In this document: positions 8,428-62,566 of the stretch, piece by piece
Numbering within the stretch: position 1 is the stretch's first letter
Layout of the letters: each line of letters starts with the position of its first letter
Source: Clostridia bacterium
GTDB lineage: Bacteria; Bacillota; Clostridia; Acetivibrionales; STF1-152
Length of the DNA: 64,000 nucleotides
Reading direction: 5' to 3'
Assembly: GCA_028280575.1 (NCBI GenBank)
Contig: JANQLN010000050.1
Location: 14,136-78,135, forward strand
Notes under the pieces: generated by a model
Databases searched by the model: none
What the model saw: the letters and a program-made list of their open reading frames with translations, nothing else
What the model was told of the DNA's origin: nothing
Position numbers and translations under genes: made by a program

Positions 8428-8775
8428 TTATGACTCATCCCCTTATCTGGTACTGCAACAAAAACTACCTTAAACACTTGATTTAAAACCGGTCGGCATA
8501 CCTTTGCTGCATGAGGCATCAAGCATTGAAAAATAAAAGCTTTCGCTGCGGTACTAATAAATAAAACATAATAGTGTTATTACAATATATGCAAGGAGGC
8601 AAGGAATGTTGTAATAGGGCTACATAAAAGATGTAACACAATATGGGGATTTACATAAAATATTAATGAGGAAAGCAAAGCCGGATATTTGTATATTTAT
8701 CAAGTGTAAGTATACGGAATATTTTGAAAAGCCACAAAAAGATATAATGTATTATGTATATTCGGAGTTGATTAT

Positions 8776-27426: not shown

Positions 27427-27490
27427 TACGTCAGATAAATAAATTTAAGATTAACTGCACAGATTTTATATATTTATGAGGTGAATTACG

Positions 27491-41307: not shown

Positions 41308-41415
41308 AGGATCTCCCTTTGATAAAATCGGTTAACTTTAAGATATTATATAACAAGTATTCAAAGAGTTAATTTGCTATTATTTATATAATAATATAAG
41401 TAAAGGAGGATTTCA

Positions 41416-46031: not shown

Positions 46032-46046
46032 AATAAATTTAGCAAA

Positions 46047-46161
46047 AGGAGTCATGTGACCGGCGGAATAAGTGGAATGAACCACAGAGAAGCATGGCTT
46101 TTGGGATTATCGGCCGCCTGGGTATATAAGCATATACCTGGGTGGCTTTATTAGTGTTTTT
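46047..46161 (+). promoter_or_regulatory. ZTP/ZMP riboswitch (pfl motif) with terminator expression platform
   Basis: P1 is GUCAUG (46051-56) paired with CAUGGC (46093-98). UGACCGGCG matches the conserved UGACUGGCG. The P2 hairpin is GUGG-aaugaa-CCAC (46072-85). After a linker comes CGGCCGCCUGGG (46111-22), which matches the conserved CCGCCUGGG pseudoknot strand. glyA is a classic gene under this riboswitch class. Confidence 0.65.
46114..46161 (+). terminator. Intrinsic terminator overlapping the riboswitch 3' pseudoknot strand
   Basis: CCGCCUGGGUAUAU-aagc-AUAUACCUGGGUGG forms a 14-bp stem with 3 G-U pairs, followed by CUUUAUUAGUGUUUUU. Confidence 0.55.
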
Positions 46162-46216
46162 GACCGGTGTATTAGATAGTTGTCCCTGGTAAAAACATAT
46201 TCGGGAGGATGATTTG

Positions 46217-47734
46217 ATGAATGGGAAAAGTTTGTTGTCATTGTATTTGGAAAAGCAGGGAAAAGATAATATTGATTCTTCCGCTGCTTCATTTTACGCT
46301 TCTTGCGACCATATTAATTCTGTTTCACCGCTTGTTGCAAAGGCAATTATAAAAGAGCTGTTTGACCAGAAAGAGAATTTGAAGTTAATTGCCAGCGAGA
46401 ACTTTTGCTCACTTGCCGTACAGATGGCACAGGGCAATCTTTTTACGGACAAATATGCGGAAGGATATGCCGAGCACAGGTTTTATGCAGGATGTGAAAA
46501 TGTGGATGATGTTGAAAAGGAAGCGTCCAGGCTTGCATGCAAGCTATTTGGAGCAGAGTATGCATATGTGCAGCCCCACTCAGGGTCTGATGCGAACCTT
46601 CTGGCTTATTTAATGGCGTTATCCCATAAAATTCAAAGGCCTTTTATGGAGGGGATAAGCATTGATAACCCCTCAAATATGCAGGATAATGACTGGGAAG
46701 AGCTGAGAAAAGCTTTTTTCAGACAAAAGCTCTTTGCCCTTGATTACTATTCAGGAGGGCATTTGACCCATGGATACAGGCATAATTTTTCCAGTATGCT
46801 TTTCGATGTGCACAGTTATACAGTTAACCGTGATACTTATCTTATAAACCTGGATGATTTAAGAAAGCAAATACATGAAATAAAACCGCTGATATTTTTA
46901 GCCGGGTACAGTTCATACCCTCGAAAAATTAATTTTGCCAAGATGAGGGAAATTGCAGATGAAGTTGGAGCAGTATTCATGGTGGACATGTCACACTTTG
47001 CAGGTTTGGTTGCAGGAAAAGTATTTACAGGGGATTACAATCCCATACCATATGCTCATATTGTTACGACAACAACTCATAAGACACTCAGAGGACCCAG
47101 AGGGGGCGTTGTAATGTGCAAGAATGATTTTGCACAATGGGCGGATAAAGGCTGCCCCATAATACAGGGAGGACCGCTGCCACATGTAATTGCAGCGAAA
47201 GCAGTCGCATTTAAAGAAGCACTTGCTCCCGAATTTTCTGAATATGCTCATAAAATAGTTAATAATTCAGTTATGCTTGCAGAGCATTGTATGAATGAAT
47301 CATTGGATGTGGTTACAGGGGGAACAGATAACCATTTGCTGCTTGTTGATGTTGCAAAAAGCTTTGGCATTACCGGCAGGCAGGCCGAATCTGCCCTCAG
47401 GGATTGTGGAATTACACTGAACCGTAATGTGCTGCCTTTTGATAAAAATGGTCCCTGGTATACAAGCGGATTGAGACTTGGCACTCCTGCAGTAACAACT
47501 TTGGGTATGGGAAGTGAAGAAATGAAGGAAATTGCAAAAACTATAAAGCTTGTATTGCAAAAAACTTCTCCTAAAACTTTAAAATCAGGCAAAAAGAGCC
47601 TTGCTAAATATACTGTTCCTGAGAAAATAGTCAAAGAGGCACATCAATGTGTTGGCAATTTACTGAAAAAATATCCTTTGTATCCCAACCTGGATATTGA
47701 AATAATCAGGGAAAGCGGAATTACAAGGAGCTGA
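46217..47734 (+). CDS. glyA: Serine hydroxymethyltransferase, unusually long form
   Basis: Motifs LIASENFCS, NKYAEGY-like DKYAEGYAEHRFYAGCE, VQPHSGSDAN, TTTTHKTLRGPRGG (PLP Lys). It is about 505 aa versus about 415 typical. I place the start at ATG 46217 (GGGAGG 8 nt upstream). Confidence 0.9.
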   Translation: MNGKSLLSLYLEKQGKDNIDSSAASFYASCDHINSVSPLVAKAIIKELFDQKENLKLIASENFCSLAVQMAQGNLFTDKYAEGYAEHRFYAGCENVDDVEKEASRLACKLFGAEYAYVQPHSGSDANLLAYLMALSHKIQRPFMEGISIDNPSNMQDNDWEELRKAFFRQKLFALDYYSGGHLTHGYRHNFSSMLFDVHSYTVNRDTYLINLDDLRKQIHEIKPLIFLAGYSSYPRKINFAKMREIADEVGAVFMVDMSHFAGLVAGKVFTGDYNPIPYAHIVTTTTHKTLRGPRGGVVMCKNDFAQWADKGCPIIQGGPLPHVIAAKAVAFKEALAPEFSEYAHKIVNNSVMLAEHCMNESLDVVTGGTDNHLLLVDVAKSFGITGRQAESALRDCGITLNRNVLPFDKNGPWYTSGLRLGTPAVTTLGMGSEEMKEIAKTIKLVLQKTSPKTLKSGKKSLAKYTVPEKIVKEAHQCVGNLLKKYPLYPNLDIEIIRESGITRS

Positions 47735-47785: not shown

Positions 47786-47814
47786 TTGAACAATTATAAA
47801 AAAGGTGCTATTAT
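47786..47814 (+). promoter_or_regulatory. Promoter of the TetR gene
   Basis: TTGAAC (47786-47791), a 17-nt spacer, then an extended -10 TGcTATTAT (47806-47814). Confidence 0.55.
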
Positions 47815-47819
47815 ATATG

Positions 47820-47845
47820 TATAAGTAACTATTCGGTTACTTATA
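47820..47845. promoter_or_regulatory. Palindromic operator O1 (TetR autoregulation site)
   Basis: TATAAGTAAC-tattcg-GTTACTTATA has perfect 10-bp arms. It starts 6 nt after the -10 box and so covers the predicted transcription start. Confidence 0.65.
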
Positions 47846-47869
47846 TGCTTTTTTATATGGGAGATTCAT

Positions 47870-48499
47870 ATGAAGAATAGAAAAGTGAGAGATTCTCAAA
47901 AATCAAGGGAAGACATATTGCTTGCGGCAGAGCAGGAATTTGCTGAAAAAGGAATATATGGAGCACGCATTGATGAAATTGCAGCAAAGGCCAATATAAA
48001 CAAGAGGATGATATATGAGTATTTCGGGAACAAGGAAGAGCTGTACAAGATTGTTCTTGCCAATGTATACAGCCGTTTGAGCCGGAAGGAGATCGATGTA
48101 TTGTCAGAGGATGCTTCATGTGTTGAGATCATTAAAAAAGTGATCAGCTTGTATTTTGATTATTTGAGCCATAATCCTTCATATGTCAATTTGATACTTT
48201 GGGAGAACCTGAATAAGGGCATGTATATCAAGGACATGGATTTTACACATATAAAAACACCTGAGCTTGACCTTTTGAGAAAAGTTATTGAAAGAGGCAA
48301 GGAAGAGGGCATTTTCAAGCCGGATGTTGACACCGAACAGGTTGTATTGTCTCTTTTGACATATAGTTTTTCATATTTTTCAAACAGGTATACACTGTCC
48401 AAGCTTTTGGGAAAAAAGCTGGATAATGAAGAAAATATCAAAAAAAGGATAAAGAATGTTACAGAGATGTTTTTGGAATATTTGTGTATAAAGCCATAA
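47870..48499 (+). CDS. TetR/AcrR-family transcriptional regulator
   Basis: 209 aa. N-terminal HTH SREDILLAAEQEFAEKGIYGARIDEIAAKANINKRMIYEYFGNKEELY. Confidence 0.9.
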   Translation: MKNRKVRDSQKSREDILLAAEQEFAEKGIYGARIDEIAAKANINKRMIYEYFGNKEELYKIVLANVYSRLSRKEIDVLSEDASCVEIIKKVISLYFDYLSHNPSYVNLILWENLNKGMYIKDMDFTHIKTPELDLLRKVIERGKEEGIFKPDVDTEQVVLSLLTYSFSYFSNRYTLSKLLGKKLDNEENIKKRIKNVTEMFLEYLCIKP

Positions 48500-48542
48500 A
48501 AGATAAAGGCTTTATACAAAAATGAATAAGTATATATTTTGC

Positions 48543-48572
48543 CATATAAATAACTAACTGGTTATTTATATG
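48543..48572. promoter_or_regulatory. Palindromic operator O2 in front of the creatininase-family gene
   Basis: CATATAAATAAC-taactg-GTTATTTATATG has perfect 12-bp arms and the same core and 6-nt spacer as O1. It ends at the RBS GAAGAGGTG of the next gene. Confidence 0.65.
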
Positions 48573-48587
48573 AAGAGGTGATTATTT

Positions 48588-49298
48588 ATGCTTGATTATT
48601 ATTCAACTGCAGACGAGATTCAAGATTCCGGTATTGATACAGCTCTGCTGCCTGTAGGCTCAGTAGAACAGCATGGACCGCATCTTCCAATAGCTACTGA
48701 TTTGATGATAGCCTCTGCTGTTGGGAAAAAGGTGTCAGAAAGACTGAATGTGCTTTTGCTTCCAACCCTGCCTGTCAGTACATGCAGGGAGCACATGGGC
48801 AAAAAGGGAAGTGTGTGGATTAATCCCGACACATTTTATTACATGATCCGGGATATTGTTTTGAGCCTTAAGGAGCAGGGATTTAAAAGGGTAATTCTTC
48901 TTATTGCCCATGGTGGCATATTCATAGCCAATCCTGCTGTCAGGGAGCTCAACGCTACAAATAATGATATAAAAGTTATAAAGGTTGACCTGGTTGGGTT
49001 CATGGGATCAAAAGAAATGGCTGTGATACTGGATTGTGAGGATAATCTTCATGCAGGTGAGCTTGAAACTTCAATTATCCTTTACCTTGACAAAGAGCTT
49101 GTAAAGAAGAAAAAAAATGTGGATTCAATACCCGGGGTACCCAGGGATTATCTCAATTATGGATCAATATTCAAATACAGTGAGAATGGAGTATGGGGAA
49201 AGCCCAGCCTTGCAAGCTGTGAAAAGGGAGAAAAAATATTCGGATTGCTTGTTGATATGAGTATAAATTATGTAAAAAAAATAAATGAGCTGATATGA
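48588..49298 (+). CDS. Creatininase-family (creatinine amidohydrolase/ArfB/MftE-type) metal-dependent amidohydrolase
   Basis: 236 aa. Motifs LLPVGSVEQHGPHLPIATD, LIAHGG, HAGELETS. Confidence 0.8.
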   Translation: MLDYYSTADEIQDSGIDTALLPVGSVEQHGPHLPIATDLMIASAVGKKVSERLNVLLLPTLPVSTCREHMGKKGSVWINPDTFYYMIRDIVLSLKEQGFKRVILLIAHGGIFIANPAVRELNATNNDIKVIKVDLVGFMGSKEMAVILDCEDNLHAGELETSIILYLDKELVKKKKNVDSIPGVPRDYLNYGSIFKYSENGVWGKPSLASCEKGEKIFGLLVDMSINYVKKINELI

Positions 49299-49429
49299 AG
49301 CAGTGTGATTTTTGTTATGGTAGTGAGTTGAGGCAGTTTTAGAAAAGCTGCGAAAATGATTATAACTGTAAACTGGATTAGCATTTATAATCTTAGCTCA
49401 TGGTTAAAAAAACGGAGGGGTGTTTTAAA

Positions 49430-50503
49430 TTGAGTGGAAAAGTAAAGGTTTTACTTGTGGGGGCAGCTTTTAGTGCAGACCTTCATATGGAAGGCTATGC
49501 AAGGTGCAGGGACATTGCACAGATTGTGGCCATTTGTGACAAGGATGTATCAAGGATAAAGGAACTGGCTGAAAGATTCGGAGTTGAAAACTACAAGGCA
49601 TATGACAATTATGATGATGCAATTGATGAGGTTGAATGTGATTTAGTGGATATATGTCTTCCAAACTTTCTTCATCATGATGTTGCCCTTAAGGCGTTTA
49701 AAAAGGGCAGGCATGTTATTTCAGAAAAGCCTCTTGCCACTACTGCTGAAGATGCCTGGGAAATGGTTGATGCGGCAGTAAAGGCCGGTAGGAAGCTCTT
49801 TTATGCAGAAGATTGGCTGTTTGCGCCGGCACTTGGCAAGGCATTGGAAATTGTAGAGGAAGGAGCAATAGGAAAACCAATGTATATAAGGGCAAGGGAG
49901 TGCCACAACGGTTCCCATTCACCATTCACTCAGACAATCAAGTATTGCGGAGGAGGTTGTATGGTTCATCTGGGAATTCATCCGGTCGGCTTTATGCTTG
50001 CCCTTAAAAACAACAGGTGGACCGAATTGGTTGCAATGACATCAGGCGGCTCTGAAAACAACTATATACACAAAAAAATGGAAGGGGAAGACTGGGCCGC
50101 TTGCATTATCAAGTTTGAGGACGGTACGTCCGCACTTCTTGAGTCAAACTATATTACAGTTGGCGGCATGGAGGACGTAATAGACATTTACGGGACAGAT
50201 GGATGCATGCATATTGACCTGACATTCTCATCAGCAATCAAATGCTTCTCTACTCCAGGGCTTAAATATACTGTGGAAAAGGCAGATATGACAAAAGGGT
50301 GGTCCCGGCCCGCAGTAGATGAGAAATTCAATCTTGGATATGTTGGTGAGATAAGACACTTCATGGAATGCTGCCTTGAAAACAGGGATGCAAAGACAGG
50401 ACTCAGGGGGATAGACGGCCTTGAAGCACTCAAGGTTATAAACCTGATATACAAGTCGGCAAAAGAAGGCAGGAAAATTGTTAATGAAGCAATAAGCGTT
50501 TAA
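49430..50503 (+). CDS. Gfo/Idh/MocA-family NAD(P)-dependent oxidoreductase
   Basis: Motifs VKVLLVGAAFSADLH, ICLPNFLHH, VISEKPLA. I place the start at TTG 49430 (GGAGGGG 9 nt upstream); the track ATG 49400 lacks an RBS. Confidence 0.8.
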   Translation: MSGKVKVLLVGAAFSADLHMEGYARCRDIAQIVAICDKDVSRIKELAERFGVENYKAYDNYDDAIDEVECDLVDICLPNFLHHDVALKAFKKGRHVISEKPLATTAEDAWEMVDAAVKAGRKLFYAEDWLFAPALGKALEIVEEGAIGKPMYIRARECHNGSHSPFTQTIKYCGGGCMVHLGIHPVGFMLALKNNRWTELVAMTSGGSENNYIHKKMEGEDWAACIIKFEDGTSALLESNYITVGGMEDVIDIYGTDGCMHIDLTFSSAIKCFSTPGLKYTVEKADMTKGWSRPAVDEKFNLGYVGEIRHFMECCLENRDAKTGLRGIDGLEALKVINLIYKSAKEGRKIVNEAISV

Positions 50504-50526
50504 TTCTCTTAAGAATGGAGGTCAAT

Positions 50527-53178
50527 ATGGGAAAAGATTTATATTTGCCTGTGGATATCGCAGGTATAACATTCAAAAATCCGTTTTATGTCGCTTCAGG
50601 ACCTACTACAAAATCGGTAAAGCAGCTTGTAAGAATTGAACAGACCGGATGGGCGGCAGCCAGTATAAAGCTTACAATTGATCCTGCACCATATATTAAC
50701 AGGGTTCCAAGGTATGCCATATTCAAAGACCGGGATGCCCTTTGCTTTACTGCTGAAAAAAGACTTACGTTTGAAGAGGGCTTAAGGCTTGTGGAGGATG
50801 CAAAAAAGGAGCTCTGTGAACTGATCCTTATGGCCAATATCACATATGCGGGGGATAAAGGGGCCCAAGGATGGGTCAATATGGCAAAGAAGTTTGAAGA
50901 GGCCGGTGCGGATATTATTGAGCTTAACATGTGCTGTCCCAATATGTCATATAATGTTGAGCTGTCAAGCTGCAATGATAAAGCCTGTAATGTACGCACA
51001 GGTGCAAGCCTTGGACAGCAGGGCGATGTTGTTGCAGGGATTGTGCGTGAAATAAAAAAAGTGATTGGGATTCCATTGTTTGTTAAACTCACCCCGGAAG
51101 GGGGAAAGATTGCACAGGTTGCAAAATCCCTTTATGAAGCAGGTGCGGATGCAGTAGGCGGAACATCAAACCGTCTGGGAATTCCTCCAATTGATCTTGA
51201 TAATCCCGCCAGGGCGGTTTACCACTTGCAGGATGAAATCAGCATGTCCTGCCATTCAGGTGCCTGGCTCAAACCTCTTGCTTTGAGGGATACGTATGAG
51301 ATGAGAAAGGTAAGCGGACCGGAAATGAGAATCATGCAGGCGGGAGGGGTACGAAACTACAGGGATGCAGTTGAGATGGTCATGTCAGGTGCCGATCTGA
51401 TAGGAATATGCGCAGAAACCCTGATAAGCGGCTATGGATTCATAGAAGAGCTGATTTCAGATATGAAGGATTATATGGATGAGCATGGATACGGGTCCCT
51501 GGTGGAAATGAGAGATTTGATTGTTCCTGAAGTTAAAAGTGCTCCGGACCTGACACTCTATGAAGGACATGCAAGGATATCAAAGCCTGAGCTTGCAGCT
51601 CCCTGTAAAGCAGCATGTCCCCATAACGTACCTGCCCAGGCATATGTGCAAAAGGTTGCAAAAGGCAGGTTCAGGCAGGCCTATGATTTGATAATGGGCA
51701 AAAATCCGCTCCAGTCGGTTTGCGGATGGGTATGCAGCCATCCATGCGAAGAAGAGTGTACAAGAGGTGTAGCAGGTATACCGGTCAGGATCAGGGAAAT
51801 CAAAAGATTTGTGATTGAATATGGCAAAAAATCAGGGTGGAAGCCAAAAGTACCTGTAAAGGAAAAAAGAAACCAGAAGGTTGCAGTGATCGGTTCAGGT
51901 CCTGCCGGACTGTCCTGTGCATATAATCTTGCCGTATCCGGATATGAGGTTACGGTGTTTGAAAAGGAAGATTATATCGGGGGTATGCTGCGCTATGGCC
52001 TTCCCAGGTTCAGGATGTGCCACAGTGTTCTTGACGATGAAATTGGCATGCTGAAATCAATGGGAATCCGGTTTGAAACAGGCAAGGCATTGGGCAGGCA
52101 TGTAAATATTGATAAGCTTAAGTCTGACGGTTATGCTTCCATATTCCTTGGGACAGGTGCACAGAAAGGTTATGAACTGGGCATTGAGGGGGAACATGCA
52201 GATGGTGTTGTATCGGCAATAGATTTTCTTAAAAGTTTTTACGACGGGAAAAGGATAAATGTGGGTAAAAGAGCTGTAGTCATAGGAGGAGGCTTCACTG
52301 CCGTTGATGCAGCCAGGACTGTTAAAAGACTGGGAGCAGATGAAGTATTTATTGCTTACAGGCGCACAAAGGATGAAATGCCTGCATCACAGGATGAAGT
52401 AAGAGAGGCTGAAGAAGAAGGTATCAAGGTCATGTACCTAGTTTCACCCAGGTCAATAAAAACAAAAAATGAAAAGGTTACCGGCATTACGATGGTAAAT
52501 CAGGTATTGGGTGAAAGAGATTCCTCCAACAGGCGCAGACCTGAAGAAATAGAAGCTGCTGAATTCACCCTGCCCTGTGACATTGTTATTGCTGCAACAG
52601 GCCAGATGCCTGATCCCATTGGTATCCGGGAGGTTGCAGCCAATAGGAAGGGGATGGTGATTGCCGACCGGACGACAGGAGCTACGAATATTAAAGGAGT
52701 ATATGCGGGAGGGGATGTCACCAATGTCCAGACTGTAATAGCTGCTGTCGCAGCAGGTAAAAAATGTGCCTGCTCCATTGACAAGCTTTTGTCAGGTGAT
52801 GATGCGGTATTGGAATACCAGGAGGAACTGCCGGCAGTATCCCCGGAGGGAGTGTTGAGAAGAGCCGGATATTTCAAGGACAATGACGGAATTGATTTAT
52901 ACACAATGGATGGCAAGGAAAGATTGGAAAATTTCTCAACCTATATAAGGACAATGACAGAGGACGAAGCGGTAAATGAGGCAAAGAGATGCCTTAACTG
53001 TGGCTGTGGAGAGGGATGCGGATTGTGTGCAGACATATGCAGTGAGTTTGCCATTCATTTGGACTCGCCGGATAAATGGAGAGTTGACAGCGAGGAATGT
53101 GTAGCATGTGGTATGTGTTATAATAGATGTCCCAATCAAAATATTGATATGGTTGACAAGGGCATAGTTGTTAAATAA
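50527..53178 (+). CDS. Three-module flavo-iron-sulfur oxidoreductase: DHOD/DPD-like FMN TIM barrel + GltD/PreT-like FAD/NAD(P)H module + 2x[4Fe-4S] ferredoxin tail
   Basis: N-terminal module: ITFKNPFYVASGP, IELNMCCPNM, LFVKLTP. Middle module: CKAACPHNVP...CGWVCSHPCEEECTRG, VAVIGSGPAGLSCAYNL, AVVIGGGFTAVDAAR, YAGGDV. C-terminal tail: CLNCGCGEGCGLCADIC ... CVACGMCYNRCP. I place the start at ATG 50527 (GGAGG 5 nt upstream). Confidence 0.8.
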   Translation: MGKDLYLPVDIAGITFKNPFYVASGPTTKSVKQLVRIEQTGWAAASIKLTIDPAPYINRVPRYAIFKDRDALCFTAEKRLTFEEGLRLVEDAKKELCELILMANITYAGDKGAQGWVNMAKKFEEAGADIIELNMCCPNMSYNVELSSCNDKACNVRTGASLGQQGDVVAGIVREIKKVIGIPLFVKLTPEGGKIAQVAKSLYEAGADAVGGTSNRLGIPPIDLDNPARAVYHLQDEISMSCHSGAWLKPLALRDTYEMRKVSGPEMRIMQAGGVRNYRDAVEMVMSGADLIGICAETLISGYGFIEELISDMKDYMDEHGYGSLVEMRDLIVPEVKSAPDLTLYEGHARISKPELAAPCKAACPHNVPAQAYVQKVAKGRFRQAYDLIMGKNPLQSVCGWVCSHPCEEECTRGVAGIPVRIREIKRFVIEYGKKSGWKPKVPVKEKRNQKVAVIGSGPAGLSCAYNLAVSGYEVTVFEKEDYIGGMLRYGLPRFRMCHSVLDDEIGMLKSMGIRFETGKALGRHVNIDKLKSDGYASIFLGTGAQKGYELGIEGEHADGVVSAIDFLKSFYDGKRINVGKRAVVIGGGFTAVDAARTVKRLGADEVFIAYRRTKDEMPASQDEVREAEEEGIKVMYLVSPRSIKTKNEKVTGITMVNQVLGERDSSNRRRPEEIEAAEFTLPCDIVIAATGQMPDPIGIREVAANRKGMVIADRTTGATNIKGVYAGGDVTNVQTVIAAVAAGKKCACSIDKLLSGDDAVLEYQEELPAVSPEGVLRRAGYFKDNDGIDLYTMDGKERLENFSTYIRTMTEDEAVNEAKRCLNCGCGEGCGLCADICSEFAIHLDSPDKWRVDSEECVACGMCYNRCPNQNIDMVDKGIVVK

Positions 53179-53245
53179 TTGTATAGCAATGTCCATCAAT
53201 GAAGAATGATGAATCATTAATGATAAGGAAAAATGGGGGGATTGG

Positions 53246-54178
53246 ATGAAGATATTGATTACGCCCAGGTCTTTTTCCAGGTCTAAGGAATTGGCCTTGG
53301 AGATACTAAAGGACTATGATTTGGACATTATTGAAAATACTACCGGAAAAACATTTGATGAAGAGCAAATGAACAGCCTCTGCAGTGATGTTGACGGAGT
53401 TATTGTTGGAATTGATCCTATGACTGAAAGGGTATTGGGAAATGCCAAAAACCTGAAAGCCATTTCAAAATATGGTGCAGGTCTTGACAATATTGACATT
53501 GACACTGCAAACAAGCTTGGGATAAAAGTAGAAAGGGCTGTAGGTACCAATGCCGTTTCTGTTGCCGAGCTTGCAATAGGTTTGTTTTTTGAGCTGTCCA
53601 GAAAAATATCTGCCTCGGCTGCAAGTGTCAAAAATGGTGGATGGGACAGATTCATCGGATGTGAATTGACCGGTAAGACTGCAGGAATAATAGGCTTGGG
53701 TGCAATTGGCAGAAAAGCTGCTTCCATGGCAGCAGGGATAGGGATGAAAGTTATCGCATATGATCCATATTTCAAGGATGACAGTTTTCTCAAAGAATAT
53801 GACATTCAAATGAAGCCACTGGATAAAGTCCTTAGACAGGGAGACTATATTTCCCTGCATGTGCCGGTGACAGAGGAAACAAGCAATATGATAAACAGGG
53901 AGACGCTGAAGGTAATGAAAAAAACGGCATTTCTCATAAATACTTCAAGAGGGGGACTGGCAGATGAAGATATGCTGTATCAAGCCCTTGCAGATGGTGA
54001 GATTGCAGGTGCTGCCCAGGATGTATTTTCCAAGGAACCTCCGGGAGAACATAAGCTGCTGGGACTTCAAAACTTTATATTGACACCGCATATTGGTGCC
54101 TATACAAAAGAAGCCAACCAGAGAATGGTAGTGCAGTCAACAAAAAACCTGGTAAATATGTTATTTGGAGATGAGTAA
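53246..54178 (+). CDS. D-isomer-specific 2-hydroxyacid dehydrogenase (phosphoglycerate-dehydrogenase-like)
   Basis: 310 aa. Motifs GIIGLGAIGRKAASMAAGIGMKV, NTSRGGL, AAQDVF, TPHIGA. Confidence 0.85.
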   Translation: MKILITPRSFSRSKELALEILKDYDLDIIENTTGKTFDEEQMNSLCSDVDGVIVGIDPMTERVLGNAKNLKAISKYGAGLDNIDIDTANKLGIKVERAVGTNAVSVAELAIGLFFELSRKISASAASVKNGGWDRFIGCELTGKTAGIIGLGAIGRKAASMAAGIGMKVIAYDPYFKDDSFLKEYDIQMKPLDKVLRQGDYISLHVPVTEETSNMINRETLKVMKKTAFLINTSRGGLADEDMLYQALADGEIAGAAQDVFSKEPPGEHKLLGLQNFILTPHIGAYTKEANQRMVVQSTKNLVNMLFGDE

Positions 54179-54191
54179 AGGAGGCATTTTT

Positions 54192-55010
54192 ATGAAAGTG
54201 AATTTTGACATTGCAGGAAAAACTGCAGCAATTATGGGTGGAGCCGGTGTATTGTGCAGCGAAATGGCAAAGCAGCTTGCCAAAAAAGGTGTAAAGGTAG
54301 CTGTTTTGGATTTGATTGGAGATAAGGCAGAGGAAGCTGCCGATGAAATAAACAAAGCAGGCGGGAAAGCAATAGGCGTTGAGAGCAATGTGCTTGACAA
54401 GGACAGTCTTATTCTTGCAAGAGACATTGTGTTGAAAGAGTTTGGAGCAATTGATATTTTAATAAATGGTGCAGGTGGAAACAAGAAGGAGGGTACAACC
54501 GGACCTGACATGAGTTTCTTTGACATACCTCTGGATGCCCTGCAGTGGGTATTCAATTTGAATTTTATGGGTACTGTCCTTGCCACCCAGGTTTTCAGTG
54601 AAGTAATGGTAAAAAGGGGCAAGGGAAATGTCATTAATGTATCATCAATGGCAGCTATTTCACCTCTTACCAGAACCATAAGCTATTCGGCGGCAAAGGC
54701 AGCTGTAAGCAACTTCACCCAGTGGATGGCAGTTCATTTCAATCAGAATTATTCAAAGGATATACGGGTTAATGCCATAGCACCGGGATTTTTACTGACT
54801 GAGCAGAACATGTACCTGCTGACCGATAAAGAGACAGGAGAAAGTACACCAAGGGGAAAATCCATTATTGACAATACACCGATGGGAAGATATGGGAGGC
54901 CTGATGAGCTTGTTGGAGCGATTATATGGCTGTCTTCAGATGCATCATCATTTGTCAATGGCGCTGTAATACCTATAGATGGGGGCTTTTCCGCATTTTC
55001 GGGAGTATAA
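54192..55010 (+). CDS. SDR-family oxidoreductase (mannonate/fructuronate-reductase-like subgroup)
   Basis: Motifs KTAAIMGGAGVLCSEMA, NGAGGN, NVSSMAA, YSAAKAAV. I place the start at ATG 54192 (AAGGAGG 7 nt upstream). Confidence 0.85.
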   Translation: MKVNFDIAGKTAAIMGGAGVLCSEMAKQLAKKGVKVAVLDLIGDKAEEAADEINKAGGKAIGVESNVLDKDSLILARDIVLKEFGAIDILINGAGGNKKEGTTGPDMSFFDIPLDALQWVFNLNFMGTVLATQVFSEVMVKRGKGNVINVSSMAAISPLTRTISYSAAKAAVSNFTQWMAVHFNQNYSKDIRVNAIAPGFLLTEQNMYLLTDKETGESTPRGKSIIDNTPMGRYGRPDELVGAIIWLSSDASSFVNGAVIPIDGGFSAFSGV

Positions 55011-55017
55011 GGGGGGC

Positions 55018-56526
55018 ATGGCTTTGAATAGTTTGTTTATGGGAGTGGATATTGGTACATCTTCAGTCAAAGCAGCTTTGTTTGATAGGGAAGGAAAACA
55101 GGTAAGCCTTTACCATAAAGAGTACCCGCTTATCTGTAATGAAGACGGAATGGCTGAAATTGATCCTGATAAAATCCTGGGTTCTCTTTTGGAGGTTATT
55201 AAAACATGCTTGGAAAAGGCAGGTGTAAATAAAAATAACATAGAAGCCATGGCATTCAGTACCCAGCTGTTCAGCCTGATGGGTGTGGACAGAAATGGAA
55301 ATCCTGTCACCAATCTCTATGTATGGGCAGATAGCCGTTCCATCAATGAATCCAGGGAAATTCAAAAAAACCATGATGTATATGATTTGTACTGCAGGAC
55401 GGGATGCAGGCCGCACCATCCCATGTACCCTTTAAGCAAGGTATTGTGGCTCAAAAACAACTATAAGCACCTGTATGAAAATATTGACAAGCTTGTCTCT
55501 ATAAAGGAGTATGTGATTTACAGGCTTTTTGGCGAATTTGCAATTGATATTACCGATGCTTCAACAACCGGCTTTTTCAATATACATGAGTTTAAATGGG
55601 ATGAAGACATATTAAAAGATGTACTTGGAATGGGAAAAGATAAGTTAGGCAGTCCTGTAGATTGTACACAGGTTTTCAATGGAATGAAAAGTGGATACGC
55701 AAAGGCAATGGGATTGAGAGAGGATATTACAGTGGCAATAGGTTCTGGAGACGGCATGCTTGCAAATCTTGGCTGCGGTGTATTTGATGATACTTCAATG
55801 TCTTTTACAATAGGAACAAGCGGAGCCCTTAGGATTTCCCTGAATAAACCCCTTTTGGACAGGGAACAGAGGACATGGTGCTATTGTTTTACAAGAGATA
55901 CATGGGTTGCAGGAGGAGCAGTGAACAATGGAGGCATAGTCTTAAAGTGGCTTAGAGATTCCCTGAGGGAACAATTTGAACATGATGCCAGGAATGAAGG
56001 GCTTGACAATATATACAAGCTTTTTGACAAATATGCCTCGCAAATAGGGCCTGGCTGTGAAAATCTGATTTTTCTTCCCCATTTGACCGGAGAAAGGTCA
56101 CCGGGATGGAATGCAGAAGCCAGGGCTACAATACACGGCCTGGGTCTTGTCCATGGAAAAAAGCATATAATAAGAGCCGCCATGGAAGGTGTAATGTACA
56201 AGATGTATTCAATTTATGAGGTTATTACCCAGATAAATGACAATGTAGAGGTAATAGTTGCAAATGGCGGATATGTGAATTCAGACCTCTGGGTCCAAAT
56301 ACAGGCAGATATTTTCAACAGGAAAATAGCTGTAGCCGGAGTTGGCGAGGCTGCAGCATTTGGTGCAGCTTATGCTGCAATGGTTGCTGCCGGAGCACTT
56401 GACGGATTTAAAGAGAAACTGCCTGGAATGAATCCTTCAAAAATTGTTGAGCCCATACCTGATAACCATATTGAATATAGGAAAGTGTATAATAATTTTA
56501 TTGAGCTGTATAAAAGCCTGTATTGA
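55018..56526 (+). CDS. FGGY-family carbohydrate kinase (gluconate/xylulose kinase-like)
   Basis: Motifs FMGVDIGTSSVKAALFD, FSTQLFSLMGVD, GSGDGMLANLG, ANGGYVNSDLW. The start is probably ATG 55018. Confidence 0.85.
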   Translation: MALNSLFMGVDIGTSSVKAALFDREGKQVSLYHKEYPLICNEDGMAEIDPDKILGSLLEVIKTCLEKAGVNKNNIEAMAFSTQLFSLMGVDRNGNPVTNLYVWADSRSINESREIQKNHDVYDLYCRTGCRPHHPMYPLSKVLWLKNNYKHLYENIDKLVSIKEYVIYRLFGEFAIDITDASTTGFFNIHEFKWDEDILKDVLGMGKDKLGSPVDCTQVFNGMKSGYAKAMGLREDITVAIGSGDGMLANLGCGVFDDTSMSFTIGTSGALRISLNKPLLDREQRTWCYCFTRDTWVAGGAVNNGGIVLKWLRDSLREQFEHDARNEGLDNIYKLFDKYASQIGPGCENLIFLPHLTGERSPGWNAEARATIHGLGLVHGKKHIIRAAMEGVMYKMYSIYEVITQINDNVEVIVANGGYVNSDLWVQIQADIFNRKIAVAGVGEAAAFGAAYAAMVAAGALDGFKEKLPGMNPSKIVEPIPDNHIEYRKVYNNFIELYKSLY

Positions 56527-56627: not shown

Positions 56628-56681
56628 ATATAACTTACGGCAGTAAGTTATTCATCAGTAACTTTCTGCCGTAAGTTATAT
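56628..56681. terminator. 23-bp hairpin between convergent operons
   Basis: ATATAACTTACGGCAGtAAGTTA ... TAACTTtCTGCCGTAAGTTATAT has 16+6 bp with one mismatch. Neither side has a flanking T-run. Confidence 0.4.
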
Positions 56682-56739: not shown

Positions 56740-58377
56740 CTATCGGATTGTGCCTGTTCCATCAACCCAGTCAGAGCCATTCCACCATATAGGATATCCC
56801 AATGATGTATCTAAATAGAACTCATACAAATAAGGAGAAGACGGCCTGTTTGCGGTTGCCCCGCCATTCTGTTTATATCGTATAATTTCATAATTCGTCA
56901 GGCTTTTAACATCAAATTCATTTTTTGCCTTTTGTATAATATTACCGACAAGCTGCACGTCACTGCCATATGCAGCGTATATACCATTTGAACTTGGAGA
57001 TGTTGAATCCAGATATATAATATTTCTTCCTATTGTTATATCATTAATATTAGATGTTGCATATATACCATGCATTACAACAGGCCCTGAAGTTGTATTA
57101 GTAATGTTATTTGCTATGGCACTTACATTAGTAGATTTATAAATATATATTCCACCCACATTACCATTATAATATTTACTGCTCCGTACAATATTTGAAA
57201 GAATATCAATTTTTGAACTCCATTCAACGTTTATAAAAGTGTCCGTCAATATATTATCCGATATCAAAATGCCTTGGCCTGACTCTACATAAATGCCGTT
57301 CCGGTTTGAGCTCTCAATATTGCAGCCTTTTATTGTAATATCTTTAGGATTAGTAGTACCCCACCACAAAACTTCAATCCCCATGTTATCCCCAGTTTTT
57401 ACAGTACAGTTTTCAATATTTACTGATTCACTGCCTTGTATCATGAGTCCTGCATATGCTGCATCAGTTACTATGAACTGGCAATTGGATACATTGACGT
57501 TTTCAGCGTTGCGGGAAATTTTCATCCCGCCTTGAGAACAGTCTCTAACTATACAATTCTCTACATTTACATTTTTAGTATCATATCCTATGTAAAGACC
57601 CAGTGCTGAAGTGGGAAGTACACTATTAGGAAACATATTTTGTACTATTATATTAGAAAGCAGTACATTTTCACATTCGTGTGATACTGCAACACCCTTT
57701 ACACAGCTATCTCTAACCCTGATATTATCAATAATTACATTTTTAGAGTACCTGAAATGTATTACAGCTTCTTTACCCCATTTATTGGCATCATCACATT
57801 TTATATTCAGTGCTTTTCCATTTTCTACTCCCATGCCAAATATATTATAGCTGCCCAGACCTTTAAAGTTACAGTTAATGACATTAAAGTTTTTAATCGT
57901 GCTTATTAATTCAAATGGAATATTTTCAGTAAACTCTCCTCTGCCATAGATACCTATGGCATTTGCTGAAGGGGAGCTTTCAAATGTACCATTTTCTACT
58001 GTAAAATCATCTGCATGTACATAAAAGATAGCTCCTACTGATGAAAAAGTATTTATGGTAGGTATGGTTGTATTCACAACAATCTTGGCATTTTTTGCAA
58101 ATATTATCTTTATACCAGGCTTAGTTATTTGAACTTCAGAATCCCATAAGTATGTTCCATCTGGAAAGTATATAGTTTCATTTCCTGAGATATTATCAAT
58201 AATTGTCTGAAAAGATGTAGAATCTGCTGTTATGCCATCACCTGCCAATCCCCAATCCTTAACGGAAATCATGTCCATATCAGTAGTATGTGCAAATACA
58301 TATACGGGAATTGCTGAAAAAAGTATAGCGAAAACTATTAATTTAATAACTGTATAGCGAATTATTATTTTTAGCAC
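56740..58377 (-). CDS. Secreted right-handed parallel beta-helix protein (pectate-lyase-superfamily / polysaccharide depolymerase-like), paralog 1
   Basis: 545 aa. GTG start with AAGGGGTGA. Signal peptide. N-terminal ISVKDWGLAGDGITADSTSFQ..IYFPDGTYL (the pectate_lyase_3-type opening). It has many I/V-x-N repeats and the C-terminal RPSSPYLYEFYLDTSLGYPIWWNGSDWVDGTG. Confidence 0.7.
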   Translation of the reverse strand: MLKIIIRYTVIKLIVFAILFSAIPVYVFAHTTDMDMISVKDWGLAGDGITADSTSFQTIIDNISGNETIYFPDGTYLWDSEVQITKPGIKIIFAKNAKIVVNTTIPTINTFSSVGAIFYVHADDFTVENGTFESSPSANAIGIYGRGEFTENIPFELISTIKNFNVINCNFKGLGSYNIFGMGVENGKALNIKCDDANKWGKEAVIHFRYSKNVIIDNIRVRDSCVKGVAVSHECENVLLSNIIVQNMFPNSVLPTSALGLYIGYDTKNVNVENCIVRDCSQGGMKISRNAENVNVSNCQFIVTDAAYAGLMIQGSESVNIENCTVKTGDNMGIEVLWWGTTNPKDITIKGCNIESSNRNGIYVESGQGILISDNILTDTFINVEWSSKIDILSNIVRSSKYYNGNVGGIYIYKSTNVSAIANNITNTTSGPVVMHGIYATSNINDITIGRNIIYLDSTSPSSNGIYAAYGSDVQLVGNIIQKAKNEFDVKSLTNYEIIRYKQNGGATANRPSSPYLYEFYLDTSLGYPIWWNGSDWVDGTGTIR

Positions 58378-58421: not shown

Positions 58422-60071
58422 TTAATGGCTTGTGCCGGATGAATCTATCCAGTTTGACCCATCCCACCATAACGGATATCCTAACGTTGCATCAAAATAG
58501 CATTCGTACAAATATGGAGATGAAGGTCTTGATTGAGAATTTCCTCCAAAAATTTTAATCCTTATAATTTCACAATTAGTTACACTGTTTGTTCCAAAAT
58601 CATTTAGAGCATCAACTATATTGTTAACAACTTTTATATCATCTCCGTATGAAATAAAAATTCCATTAGTGCCTGCAGTTGTAGAATCAAGTGATATATT
58701 ATTATTGCCTATTAAAATATTACTAAGACTTGATGTTGCATATATACCATGATACCATGTACCACCGTTATTTGTATTAGAAATATTATTTGACATGGCG
58801 TTTACTGCAGTAGACTTATAAATATATATTCCTCCAATATTAGAATCATAATATTCACTGCTCCGTATTGTATTTGAAATAATATTTACATGAGAACTCC
58901 AATGGATTCTAATGTATGTATTTTTCATACTGTTACCAATTATATCAACATTTTTTGCACCTAGAGCATATATCCCATAGCTGTTCGCGCTTTTTACAAT
59001 GTTTCCCTCTATTTTTATATTTTCTACGTCATAGCCACCATCCCAGTCGGCTATATAAATACCTCTTGCTGTAATTGTATTAACAATACTGTTATTCAAG
59101 TTAACATTTTTACAACCCATAAGTATAACTGCACTATCTGTACTACTATTACTTTCAAGGTTCTCAAAGTAACAGTTTTCAATATTTATGTCTTTACTGT
59201 TTCTTGATACTCTTAATGCTGCTTCATCATTCATAGTACTTATGTAATTACTGATATTAACATGGTTGCAATTATATCCGATGTCAATTCCCAATCCGGT
59301 GCCAGCACCAACTGTGTGCTCTGACAAATTATTGATAATAATGTTTTTTAGTAAAACATTATTACTGTAAAATGCTGCAATGCCTTTATAATAACTATCG
59401 CTGATCCTTATGTTATTTACTATTGCATTGTCAGCATTCTTACAGTATATTATACCTTCTGCTCCATCAATATTAGCATTGCTAAAATCAACATTTTGTA
59501 TAGTAATATCATTTACATAGTCAGCATAAATGTTACTATTCTTTATTCCATCAAAGCTACTGTTTAAAATCTTTATGTTTGAAAGGCGGTCATTCAACTG
59601 GCCAAGTATGTATAAAGCTTTAGATGTGGTTGCACTTCCCTCAAATTTTGCGTTTTCAATGGTTATATCATCATCAGTAATTTTAAAGATAGAATTAATT
59701 GAAGTGTTATTAACAATTTTTGCGTTTTTTTCAAACACTATCCTAACTCCAGAAACTGTTATTTCTACTTCTGATCCCCATAGATATGTTCCGTCGGGGA
59801 AGTAAATTGACTCACCGGTTGAAAGACCACTGAGCAAAGTTCGAAATGCGCTGGAATCATCAGTAAATCCATCACCAATCAAACCATGGTCTTTTACTGA
59901 TATCATATCCATACTTGTCGATTGATTTGCACCTTCTACGGTTTGAATATTTACTTCCATGGTCAGTAAAAACATACAAACTGCAAATACCACAATTAAT
60001 AAAGCTGTTTGTCCAAAAAATTTTTTTACCACAAAAACCACTTCCTTCCTAATATTAATATTTATCTTCAT
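58422..60071 (-). CDS. Secreted right-handed parallel beta-helix protein, paralog 2
   Basis: 549 aa and collinear with paralog 1 (ISVKDHGLIGDGFTDDSSAF..IYFPDGTYL ... RPSSPYLYECYFDATLGYPLWWDGSNWIDSSG). An alternative start at GTG 60032 (AGGAAGGAAG 8 nt upstream) gives a cleaner signal peptide (MVKKFFGQTALLIVVFAV). Confidence 0.7.
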   Translation of the reverse strand: MKININIRKEVVFVVKKFFGQTALLIVVFAVCMFLLTMEVNIQTVEGANQSTSMDMISVKDHGLIGDGFTDDSSAFRTLLSGLSTGESIYFPDGTYLWGSEVEITVSGVRIVFEKNAKIVNNTSINSIFKITDDDITIENAKFEGSATTSKALYILGQLNDRLSNIKILNSSFDGIKNSNIYADYVNDITIQNVDFSNANIDGAEGIIYCKNADNAIVNNIRISDSYYKGIAAFYSNNVLLKNIIINNLSEHTVGAGTGLGIDIGYNCNHVNISNYISTMNDEAALRVSRNSKDINIENCYFENLESNSSTDSAVILMGCKNVNLNNSIVNTITARGIYIADWDGGYDVENIKIEGNIVKSANSYGIYALGAKNVDIIGNSMKNTYIRIHWSSHVNIISNTIRSSEYYDSNIGGIYIYKSTAVNAMSNNISNTNNGGTWYHGIYATSSLSNILIGNNNISLDSTTAGTNGIFISYGDDIKVVNNIVDALNDFGTNSVTNCEIIRIKIFGGNSQSRPSSPYLYECYFDATLGYPLWWDGSNWIDSSGTSH

Positions 60072-60265: not shown

Positions 60266-61441
60266 CTATTTCAACATCCTGTTCAAAAGACTAGTACATA
60301 AAATAAAAGCCCTTGGAACATGGAAAGGCCCTTTCCAAAGTGAACCTTTTATTGGTGAGGAAAGTGAACCATCCCTGTGAAGGTATCCGTACCATTCACC
60401 AAATTCCTTGTCCGGAAAATGTCTGAATGTCCAGTCATGCATCTTCTCATACCACTGCTCATACTTCCCATCTTCAGTCAGGTTATAAGCAAGCAGCAGA
60501 GCATACAGCGCCTCAGTATGCGGCCACCAAAGCTTCATATCCCACTCAAGCTGCTCGGGGGGGTTGCCGTCCACATCAATAAAATATAAAAGTCCCCCAT
60601 ACTGTTTATCCCATCCCAGCTCAAGCGACCAGTCAAGAATTAGTAAAGCTTTTTTTATTATAGCCTTATCTCCTCGTCTCATTCCCTCCTCCATAAGAAA
60701 CCAGGAAGTTTCTATGGCATGTCCGGGATTTACACATCTTCCCTCAGGCAAGTCAATAAATTCACCATTAACCCCAACATTTTCAAGTAAAGCCTTCTTT
60801 TCAGTATTAACAAAATCACTGAACAATTCATTGATAAGCATATTAATTACATCATCATATACCGGACTGTCATCCACTTCACGCAAACCCTGGCTTGTAG
60901 CTATCAGAATCATAGGCATTGAGTGAGATTTCATGCTGCGTGTCTCTGTATACACCTTTGACGGGAGTCTGTCCGGGTTTTGATAGTAATCAATGACAAG
61001 GTTGTATGTATCCTTTGCAAATTGCAAGGCCTTTTTACTGCCTGAAGCCTTTGCATATTCGGCAAAGGCAATTATGGCAAAACATTCTGAAAAAAGGTAT
61101 CTTCTCTTCCTTAAAGGCTTACCTTCTCTTGTGACATGGAAAAAAAGCCTACCATCGTCATCAAAGCAATGCCTTGTTAAAAATTCATAACCAAGACGAG
61201 CTGCATTCAGCCACTCATCCTTTTTGCCAAATCTATTGCATAACTTAGAGTATATCCATACTCCTCTTCCCTGAAACCAAACAGATTTATCACTTGAAAG
61301 AATTGAACCCTTTCTATCAAGCCATGTAATATATCCGCCATGTTCATTATCCAGTGAATGTTTTAGCCAAAATGGTATAATATCTCTGAACAAAGTATTG
61401 CTGTATAGTTCATGAAGCTCTTTAATCCTGTTTTTATTCAT
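60266..61441 (-). CDS. N-acylglucosamine 2-epimerase (AGE) superfamily epimerase/isomerase
   Basis: 391 aa. Motifs IIPFWLKHSLDNEHGGY, VWFQGRGVW, NPGHAIETSWF, WDKQYGGLLYF, KLWWPHTEALYA, GEWYGYLHRDG. Confidence 0.8.
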   Translation of the reverse strand: MNKNRIKELHELYSNTLFRDIIPFWLKHSLDNEHGGYITWLDRKGSILSSDKSVWFQGRGVWIYSKLCNRFGKKDEWLNAARLGYEFLTRHCFDDDGRLFFHVTREGKPLRKRRYLFSECFAIIAFAEYAKASGSKKALQFAKDTYNLVIDYYQNPDRLPSKVYTETRSMKSHSMPMILIATSQGLREVDDSPVYDDVINMLINELFSDFVNTEKKALLENVGVNGEFIDLPEGRCVNPGHAIETSWFLMEEGMRRGDKAIIKKALLILDWSLELGWDKQYGGLLYFIDVDGNPPEQLEWDMKLWWPHTEALYALLLAYNLTEDGKYEQWYEKMHDWTFRHFPDKEFGEWYGYLHRDGSLSSPIKGSLWKGPFHVPRAFILCTSLLNRMLK

Positions 61442-61502
61442 TATACCTCACCTCCATTTTCATTTTTTATCAAAAACCAATCTTAGCAATTTATCTTATT
61501 CT

Positions 61503-62498: not shown

Positions 62499-62566
62499 AA
62501 TTAATACACCTTTCCTAAACAAATATAAATAAAATATATTGATATATAATAATTATACAAGATAAT

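Follow-up and report, generated by a model that had tools for sequence, protein, structure and literature searches.

Between 47.8 and 56.5 kb on the plus strand of a 64-kb stretch of DNA from a Clostridia bacterium (contig JANQLN010000050.1; the whole stretch is called the window), the ORF list and translations place a tetR gene and six co-directional genes, seven in total, among which is the gene for an 883-residue flavo-iron-sulfur reductase related to dihydropyrimidine dehydrogenase (DPD) and YgfK. We read these genes, giving the reading about an even chance, as an inducible operon for the catabolism of a cyclic, anionic compound of the C6 sugar-acid type. More tentatively, and at somewhat less than an even chance, the DPD/YgfK-type reductase may act on a carbohydrate-derived ring (a 3-keto-4,5-unsaturated uronate or an enediol lactone) and not on a nucleobase. 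All the parts come from known families, and the reductive pathways for pyrimidines and uric acid already follow the logic of reducing a ring and then hydrolyzing it under a TetR switch. The breakdown pathway itself appears to be undescribed; full-text literature searches found none of this composition, as the sequence-only reading that preceded this analysis had supposed.

A conserved dehydrogenase-reductase pair and its exchangeable partners

A one-genome-per-species scan for reductase loci recovered 386 related loci, carried by Clostridia (including the cultured Ruminiclostridium cellobioparum), Bacteroidia, Planctomycetota, Victivallales and others; Oscillospiraceae and Christensenellales of herbivore and human guts are also among the carriers, and the nearest relatives are metagenome-assembled genomes of digester Clostridiaceae (80%, L038). 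Neighbors were counted in 83 loci, loci with at least 7 kb on each side were treated as complete (n = 32), and the p values for co-occurrence are plain cluster statistics over loci in which kinship is ignored. The conserved core is the Gfo/Idh/MocA dehydrogenase (Gfo) gene and the adjoining downstream reductase gene: Gfo directly precedes the reductase in 70 of the 83 loci, at 44-82% identity, and is present in 28 of the complete ones. A short-chain dehydrogenase/reductase (SDR) is a neighbor in 40/83 loci, a creatininase-family hydrolase in 33/83, a 2-hydroxyacid dehydrogenase (2-Hacid_dh) in 23/83, a TetR in 20/83 and an FGGY kinase in 11/83. The sequence-only reading had singled out the creatininase and reductase genes as the pair whose context conservation should be tested, and that pair does recur, also with an unfused reductase in locus L090, but it is looser than the pair of Gfo and reductase. 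Its broader proposal, a TetR-gated coupling of a DPD-like reductase and a creatininase-family hydrolase with sugar-type dehydrogenases and a kinase, is supported.

The reductase (50527-53178, plus strand; alternative start 50515) contains the Pfam domains DHO_dh (residues 11-321), Fer4_20 (362-441), Pyr_redox_2 (455-748) and Fer4 (834-879). It would therefore be built of an FMN-binding TIM barrel like that of PreA and dihydroorotate dehydrogenase (DHODH), two [4Fe-4S] clusters, an FAD/NAD(P)H module like PreT and GltD, and two further [4Fe-4S] clusters. Cysteine sets at 360-411 and 822-868 and GxGxxG motifs at 456 and 587 account for the predicted four iron-sulfur clusters and two dinucleotide sites, and the C-terminal ~530 residues resemble NfnA, DPD, GltD and PreT. 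The cofactors are thus predicted to be those of mammalian DPD, PreT/PreA and PydA, and the catalytic loop N-x-x-C-P is held in common. The barrel comes first, however, so that the enzyme is permuted with respect to mammalian DPD, as had been recognized from the sequence. It is instead collinear with YgfK (barrel, GltD, ferredoxin). BLASTP aligns residues 358-869 with residues 458-949 of E. coli YgfK at 29% identity over 530 aa (E=6e-55), and the N-terminal barrels are in register but barely similar (E=0.016). Neither equivalog cutoff is reached: the protein scores 187 bits against the PreA model NF006183 (cutoff 335) and 320 bits against the YgfK model TIGR03315 (cutoff 835). Full-length homologs at 62-80% identity are very numerous and are annotated only as 'FAD-dependent oxidoreductase'.

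When the barrel is aligned to domain IV of pig DPD, N134 corresponds to N668, C137 to the catalytic C671 and N215 to N736. T737 of DPD is replaced by R216 and the N609 loop by FTAEKR, so that two of the four pyrimidine contacts checked are kept (Asn668 and Asn736) and two are not. More than 70 reductase homologs conserve the motifs F[TS]xE[KRT]R, NMCCPNMS and NR[LM][GA].

Locus L090, found from the creatininase side, carries a 63%-identical Gfo and a creatininase gene with TctABC. Its unfused 402-aa DHO_dh+Fer4 protein, 45% identical to the barrel and bearing the same motifs, lies next to enolase-superfamily and xylose-isomerase-fold genes. From this arrangement we infer that the catalytic subfamily, Gfo and creatininase stay together without the NAD(P)H module. 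Lacking the FAD/NAD(P)H module, the L090 protein has the architecture of clostridial PydAc, which is ferredoxin-dependent (PMC7332683), and this likeness implies that the catalytic domain can use another electron donor. It differs from PydAc in its substrate-loop motifs and in its neighbors, which are Gfo, creatininase, Tct and enolase-superfamily genes and not PydB or PydC.

Around the core, the same functions are filled by different families. Among the complete loci, 26 have sugar-acid enzymes, 23 a metallohydrolase and 14 a NagB-like protein. The hydrolase slot holds creatininase, Amidohydro_3 or Amidohydro_2, or is vacant (9/28 of the complete loci with Gfo, 9/32 of all complete loci), and creatininase and Amidohydro_3 never occur together (0 of 29 versus 11, p=0.005). 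Similarly, 2-Hacid_dh and Ldh_2 are mostly mutually exclusive (p=0.03), and FGGY and PfkB kinases of the 2-keto-3-deoxygluconate (KDG) type swap beside an aldolase for 2-keto-3-deoxy-6-phosphogluconate (KDPG) in syntenic loci. The other neighbors counted are a NagB-like protein (21 loci of 83), an Ldh_2 dehydrogenase (18), Amidohydro_3 (13), a KHG/KDPG aldolase (11; 257 bits, above the cutoff of 241), a KDG-type PfkB kinase with that aldolase (11), malic enzyme (9) and a LIV-type ABC system (3). In addition, L085 encodes a tagaturonate reductase (544 bits, above the cutoff of 359) with a GD_AH dehydratase, and L043 a nickel-pincer 'hexonate epimerase' (632, above 500). At least eight loci have the KDG kinase and aldolase but no dehydratase. 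Transporters of the orthologous loci are of the AEC, Tct, MFS or ABC types and mostly serve anions (AEC, TctABC); the operon in the window encodes none, as the sequence-only reading had remarked. Homologs of Eda, PfkB, NagB-like, Ldh_2, Amidohydro_3 and AEC proteins were sought in all 64 kb of the window and none was found, and a pooled Pfam scan of 114 unlabelled co-directional neighbors from the related loci detected no domain in more than four loci.

Some lineages have their own forms of the locus. Planctomycete loci (L049, L057, L064, L066, L083), and likewise L055 and L060, often have no Gfo adjoining the reductase. Next to the reductase they encode a divergent OTCase-like carbamoyltransferase that reaches no equivalog cutoff, a protein of the xylose-isomerase fold, a Peptidase_C26 and two Amidohydro_2 proteins, and in planctomycete-type loci without an adjacent Gfo the active-site motifs of the reductase are unchanged. 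Rumen and caecum Oscillospiraceae (L023, L026, L029, L030, L037, L045, L079) have the form Gfo-reductase-SDR-Amidohydro_3, always divergent from a set of ATP-grasp, PHP, polysaccharide-deacetylase and cation-efflux genes. In the Christensenellaceae loci L020/L084, genes for a nitrilase-family amidase, a ribose-type ABC transporter and a CD3072-family TudS-related desulfidase (148 bits, above the cutoff of 130) precede the cluster (560-8940) and a RutB/biuret-hydrolase-like isochorismatase follows it (18769-19386); this nucleobase-flavored set is limited to that lineage.

Organization and predicted regulation of the operon

All the gene families named in the sequence-only reading were recovered by Pfam and NCBIfam profile searches on the plus strand of the same span. 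That reading had seven co-directional genes following tetR; the shared direction holds, and the count does not, since six genes come after tetR and seven is the number with tetR included. The tetR gene (47870-48499, plus strand) encodes a 209-aa protein with TetR_N (1e-13) and TetR_C_29 (4e-26) domains. The creatininase-family binuclear metallohydrolase (236 aa; 48588-49298, plus strand) matches PF02633 with 187 bits against a cutoff of 31 (E=4e-55). Its translation contains the motifs EQHGPHLPIATD, AHGG and HAGELETS, which we take, from the creatininase structure, to supply the metal ligands. It falls below the cutoffs of the equivalogs of its family (creatininase 98/235, MftE 104/172, IolN 65/245, ArfB 33/180 bits), and its closest PDB match reaches 4e-16 only. 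We propose that it may be a ring (lactone or lactam) or amide hydrolase.

The Gfo protein (367 aa; 49400-50503, plus strand) has three Pfam domain matches, Rossmann and C-terminal alpha/beta domains and the EKP motif as SEKPLA. Its relatives include the sugar-ring 3-dehydrogenases UDP-GlcNAc 3-dehydrogenase, levoglucosan dehydrogenase and DgpA, and it does not reach the equivalog cutoffs for IolG (106/355 bits) or UDP-GlcNAc 3-dehydrogenase (129/450 bits), the latter being its best NCBIfam match. The reductase gene follows, and then that of a D-isomer-specific 2-hydroxyacid dehydrogenase (310 aa; 53246-54178, plus strand; 2-Hacid_dh_C 8e-59), which is below cutoff for the PGDH, glyoxylate-reductase and GhrB models. 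The SDR (272 aa; 54192-55010, plus strand; alternative start 54165) passes the cutoff of the PRK08277 'D-mannonate oxidoreductase' subfamily (366 against 281 bits); its closest PDB match is 4wuv (1e-74). Last comes an FGGY sugar(-acid) kinase (502 aa; 55018-56526, plus strand; alternative start 54979), which has the family domains FGGY_N/C, is below the cutoff of gntK_FGGY (TIGR01314; 442 against 648 bits) and is nearest to gluconokinases, with a PDB match to the gluconate kinase 3gbt at 8e-82.

The starts at 50527, 54192 and 55018 were chosen by their ribosome-binding sites, and 50527 also agrees with an 883-aa database entry. With starts supported in this way, the gaps from tetR to the kinase gene are 88, 101, 23, 67, 13 and 7 bp. 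A 23-bp inverted repeat at 56628-56681 (96% complementary, 8-nt loop, dG -32.3 kcal/mol, z -8.2), 3' of the kinase gene in a convergent intergenic region, is likely the end of transcription of the operon, and from gaps and hairpins together the cotranscription of its genes is plausible. The same hairpin holds a sub-palindrome, ATAACTTAC-N4-GTAAGTTAT, that resembles the TetR operator half-site TAAGTAAC without matching it. Terminator-like and promoter-like matches in the operon region are not commoner than in shuffles.

Two palindromes flank tetR, each directly 3' of a promoter-like -35/-10 pair. Operator O1, TATAAGTAAC-N6-GTTACTTATA (47820-47847), begins 5 bp after P1 (TTGAAC-17-TATTAT with TG; 47786-47814, plus strand), a candidate promoter for tetR. 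Operator O2, CATATAAATAAC-N6-GTTATTTATATG (48543-48572), comes directly after P2 (TTTATA-16-TATATT; 48511-48538, plus strand), which would serve the catabolic genes. Both promoters are consensus matches only, and the operators come from a palindrome search and a window-wide pattern count. The pattern TAARTAAC-N6-GTTAYTTA has two matches in the 64 kb, at 47822 and 48547, and none in 100 shuffles. In the two longer gaps 3' of O2 (49280-49420 and 53160-53260) no inverted repeats were found. At least 13 orthologous loci have a GTAAC-N6-GTTAC palindrome just 5' of tetR, and in seven of them (L004, L005, L006, L014, L015, L038 and L073) another copy precedes the first catabolic gene, which is Gfo or creatininase. 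The earlier suggestion that operators bracket tetR is thus strengthened by two palindromes that are unique in the window and conserved in position.

The repressor combines a TetR_N helix-turn-helix and a ligand domain with palindromic promoter-adjacent sites, as is expected of TetR repressors. It has orthologs at 64-77% identity in 20 loci, and it reaches none of the equivalog models (RutR 48 bits against a cutoff of 368). TetR is predicted to bind O1 and O2 just 3' of both -10 boxes, and there is good comparative evidence for its probable autoregulation and repression of the operon. A hairpin across the tetR stop codon (48480-48523, plus strand; 16-nt arms 94% complementary, dG -15.2 kcal/mol, z -5.3), which is without a T-run, could possibly act as a partial terminator or attenuator.

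The gene upstream of tetR (46214-47734) encodes a long-form serine/glycine hydroxymethyltransferase (SHMT; PRK13580, 747 bits, above the cutoff of 735) and is preceded by a ZMP/ZTP (pfl) riboswitch at 46046-46130 on the plus strand (55.9 bits against a gathering score of 39). It was considered as a member of the operon and rejected: it has its own riboswitch and is absent from the 83 related loci, and P1 and O1 lie between it and tetR. To judge from these annotations, the riboswitch and the SHMT gene make up a unit of one-carbon metabolism that is distinct from the TetR operon and adjoins it on the upstream side.

A proposed route and its alternatives

In the route that we propose, Gfo would oxidize a ring hydroxyl to a ketone, by which a conjugated C=C-C=O system beside a carboxyl or lactone group would be made or extended. 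Electrons would pass in the reductase from NAD(P)H to FAD, through the four [4Fe-4S] clusters and on to FMN, and the C=C bond would be reduced with the help of a cysteine acid of the DHODH/DPD type; the oxidation by Gfo and the reduction by its partner would make the pair redox-neutral. The creatininase-family metallohydrolase would then open the ring (lactone or lactam), by now labile, or strip an acyl group. A hexonate or a 2-keto-3-deoxyhexonate would result once the 2-hydroxyacid dehydrogenase (or Ldh_2) and the SDR had adjusted positions 2 and 5. The FGGY kinase would phosphorylate this product, an aldolase of the Entner-Doudoroff type encoded elsewhere would cleave it, and hexuronate enzymes may finish the route. 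A hydrolase slot occupied by three metallohydrolase families or by none fits a ring-opening or lactonase-type step after reduction. The sugar-acid context of the loci, which comprises the aldolase and kinase, tagaturonate reductase, epimerase, PRK08277-type SDR, gluconokinase-like FGGY kinase and anion transporters, would support the proposed route. In its favor we also count the conserved operators, the Gfo-reductase pair with its unfused form in L090, the sugar-ring 3-dehydrogenases among the relatives of Gfo, and a retained catalytic apparatus (the NMCCPNM cysteine loop, three Asn, four iron-sulfur Cys sets and two GxGxxG motifs). DPD followed by dihydropyrimidinase, and YgfK coupled to SsnA, serve as precedents for it.

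The leading substrate candidate, itself doubtful, is a 4,5-unsaturated hexuronate. Oxidation of its allylic 3-OH would give O=C3-C4H=C5(COO-)-O, an isostere of orotate, and 3-dehydrogenation of sugar rings is a reaction typical of Gfo enzymes. In the substrate loops, conserved Arg and Lys would suit a carboxylate, and the occurrence of KDG kinase and aldolase without a dehydratase fits a substrate that already bears the deoxy carbon. An enediol lactone such as L-ascorbate is an unlikely second candidate. It would account for the fully oxygenated products on which the tagaturonate reductase, hexonate epimerase and gluconokinase-like kinase act, as well as for the dispensable hydrolase.

Hexuronates and unsaturated uronates are catabolized by UxaB-UxaA, UxuB-UxuA, KduI-KduD and KdgK-Eda, and L-idonate and gluconate in E. 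coli by IdnD-IdnO-IdnK. The loci share with these routes the downstream types (tagaturonate reductase, dehydratase, KDG kinase, KDPG aldolase and gluconokinase-like FGGY) and an SDR of the mannonate-oxidoreductase/5-ketogluconate-reductase type. They differ in having no uronate isomerase or KduI, and the entry steps of Gfo, flavo-iron-sulfur reductase, metallohydrolase and 2-hydroxyacid dehydrogenase have no counterpart in the known routes.

Several points weigh against the sugar-acid route. Each of its chemical steps is drawn from sequence relationships. The known unsaturated-uronate routes (KduI/KduD) are shorter and leave the need for such a module unexplained, and no PL, GH88, GH105 or KduI was present among the co-directional neighbors scanned. 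For ascorbate, the comparisons of FGGY with LyxK and of Ldh_2 with YiaK, both of E. coli, are family-level at 25% identity each and give no specific support in either direction. A role for KdgF was considered and dropped, as the small cupins encoded beside transporters in L087, L089 and L090 gave no match to structures of KdgF. The AlphaFold2 model of the reductase (13-sequence alignment; mean pLDDT 63.7, with the active-site loops and the C-terminal ferredoxin below 50) was too poor for inspecting the pocket and was not used, and the cluster statistics ignore phylogeny. Counting the redox enzymes to deduce a substrate formula gave no unique answer. Finally, the N-processing neighbors (NagB-like, OTCase-like, LIV-type ABC and aminotransferase/GDH) are unaccounted for, and they keep an amino-sugar-acid or N-heterocycle substrate alive.

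The sequence-only reading had favored an N-heterocycle, namely catabolism of a glycosidic compound (nucleoside-like, or a ribosylated pyrimidine or lactam) in which the ring is reduced, the amide opened and the sugar oxidized and phosphorylated. We regard this as unlikely. It has precedents in DPD and dihydropyrimidinase, which share with the operon the logic of reducing a conjugated ring and then hydrolyzing it, and in YgfK, which reduces 2,8-dioxopurine in a reaction seen only when coupled to the amidohydrolase SsnA (2025; PMC12507026). In the reductive uric-acid pathway OTCase-like and Amidohydro_3 enzymes are interchangeable (PMC12507026), and hydrolase families are exchangeable in the operon loci as well. 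The reductase keeps the DPD/DHODH catalytic residues, the creatininase family includes cyclic amidases and deformylases, and TetR aligns with RutR over its full length, though weakly. OTCase-like genes adjoin the reductase in planctomycete loci, and the desulfidase, isochorismatase, nitrilase-family amidase and ribose-type ABC genes of L020/L084 would also fit, but these N-related genes of L020 occur in that one lineage only. Half of the uracil contacts checked are lost, N609 and T737 being replaced by FTAEKR and Arg. Dihydropyrimidinase and beta-ureidopropionase are not encoded in the window and do not recur in the 83 loci, SsnA and XdhD are in none of the locus maps, and HyuA, YgeX and YgeY of the YgfK system are likewise missing from the operon loci. 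A pattern of nucleoside phosphorylase or hydrolase, beta-ureidopropionase and ribokinase was not seen among the loci. In place of the DPD partners there are a Gfo partner and sugar-acid enzymes, and in place of purine enzymes those of carbohydrate acids. The downstream enzymes are specific to hexuronates and hexonates (C6) and not to pentoses, nucleosides or beta-alanine, the transporters are chiefly for carboxylates, and about a quarter of the complete loci have no hydrolase. The nucleoside or pyrimidine reading is weakened by these points and is not favored.

Catabolism of an N-acyl amino-uronate, or of another amino sugar acid, has in our view a slim chance. The creatininase-family or Amidohydro_3 protein would be a NagA-like N-deacylase, the NagB-like protein of sister loci would deaminate/isomerize a 2-amino-uronate to fructuronate, tagaturonate or 5-ketogluconate, and the Gfo/reductase pair would correct configuration or saturation. 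Creatininase and NagB-like genes co-occur (p=0.001), the NagB-like proteins keep the deaminase motifs MDEY and GENGHIAFNDP without the phosphate ligands of NagB (by comparison with the E. coli sequence), and the best NCBIfam match of Gfo, UDP-GlcNAc 3-dehydrogenase, the LIV-type ABC systems of three loci and the downstream hexuronate enzymes are all compatible with this scheme. However, the window has no NagB-like gene, many loci lack both the hydrolase and the NagB-like gene, and the reductase, the component conserved best, has no necessary part to play in the scheme.

A cyclitol pathway is very unlikely. The inositol pathway of Thermotoga maritima is reported to run through IolG, IolM, IolN and IolO (Rodionova et al. 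2013). By analogy, Gfo would be an inositol dehydrogenase, the flavo-iron-sulfur enzyme would work oxidatively like DHODH B to give a diketo-inositol, and the creatininase-family protein would be an IolN-like C-C hydrolase yielding a 5-keto-aldonate for the hexuronate enzymes. IolN, a 3-dehydro-scyllo-inosose hydrolase, does belong to the creatininase family, both systems feed the tagaturonate/fructuronate route to KDG from a Gfo-family dehydrogenase and a creatininase-family hydrolase, with the shared logic of oxidizing, hydrolyzing the ring and passing to hexuronate enzymes, and a XylIso-TIM gene (the IolO fold) occurs in L090 and the planctomycete loci. The matches to IolN and IolG (65 and 106 bits; NF041098 was the NCBIfam model tested for this comparison) are nevertheless far under the cutoffs of 245 and 355, the creatininase-family protein is no nearer to IolN than to MftE or creatininase, and the window lacks IolM and IolO. 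The transporters are for anions and not neutral cyclitols, the hydrolase is dispensable in many loci as a C-C cleavage step could not be, and the large reductase, the most conserved element and one that Thermotoga does without in using a simple NAD-dependent dehydrogenase, is unexplained.

Least probable of all is that there is no single pathway and that Gfo and reductase form a TetR-run detoxification or redox module among unrelated sugar enzymes: L007, L012, L013 and L015 do carry only TetR-Gfo-reductase followed by unrelated genes, and the accessory genes vary widely among lineages, but these are repeatedly drawn from the same small functional set, recur in distant phyla and keep their slots under replacement (creatininase/Amidohydro_3, 2-Hacid_dh/Ldh_2, FGGY/PfkB), and in the window they are co-directional with short or overlapping gaps.

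Genomic surroundings and significance

The window holds other carbohydrate-related genes. A second long co-directional cluster (13967-38320, plus strand) includes an FGGY kinase, a ceramidase-like protein, Amidohydro_1, a Gfo-like protein, an SDR paralog, two sugar-ABC permeases, a large substrate-binding protein, a 2-Hacid_dh paralog, an enolase-superfamily enzyme and two ORFs without a Pfam match (26269-29056). Three other loci, and the P0076 locus, likewise have Ceramidase_alk-like genes close to the reductase. Convergent with the operon are two genes on the minus strand (56740-58377 and 58422-60071) for paralogous secreted right-handed beta-helix proteins (Beta_helix / Pect-lyase_RHGA_epim) with the common C-terminal motif ...RPSSPYLYE.Y.D..LGYP.WW.G..W.D..G, and a beta-helix protein is also encoded upstream of the cluster in L003. 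Beyond them, N-acylglucosamine-2-epimerase-family, Gfo-like and GH2-like (exo-glucosaminidase-type Ig domain) genes (60266-63982, minus strand) would form a further glycan-utilization group on the opposite strand. At 40438-42480, some 6 kb before the operon, a URO-D-family gene is accompanied by a divergent AraC regulator, and in L090 three URO-D-family genes (5339-8716) diverge from the Gfo-creatininase-Tct genes; this may be coincidence or a link.

To our knowledge, DPD-type flavo-iron-sulfur reductases have so far been known for nucleobases, namely uracil, thymine and, since 2025, a purine. If the reductase does act on a carbohydrate ring, this would be the first carbohydrate substrate for the DPD/YgfK enzyme family, and the operon would represent a new and widespread way for anaerobes to convert sugar acids of plant, algal or host origin into KDG or gluconate. 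The system is tractable, with a TetR/operator pair, a cultured carrier in R. cellobioparum and a two-enzyme core. Identification of the substrate would give a function to proteins annotated, in several thousand cases, just as 'FAD-dependent oxidoreductase' or 'creatininase family', would widen the chemistry of the DPD family and would add a route for the anaerobic turnover of carbohydrate acids, or amino-sugar acids, in guts and digesters.

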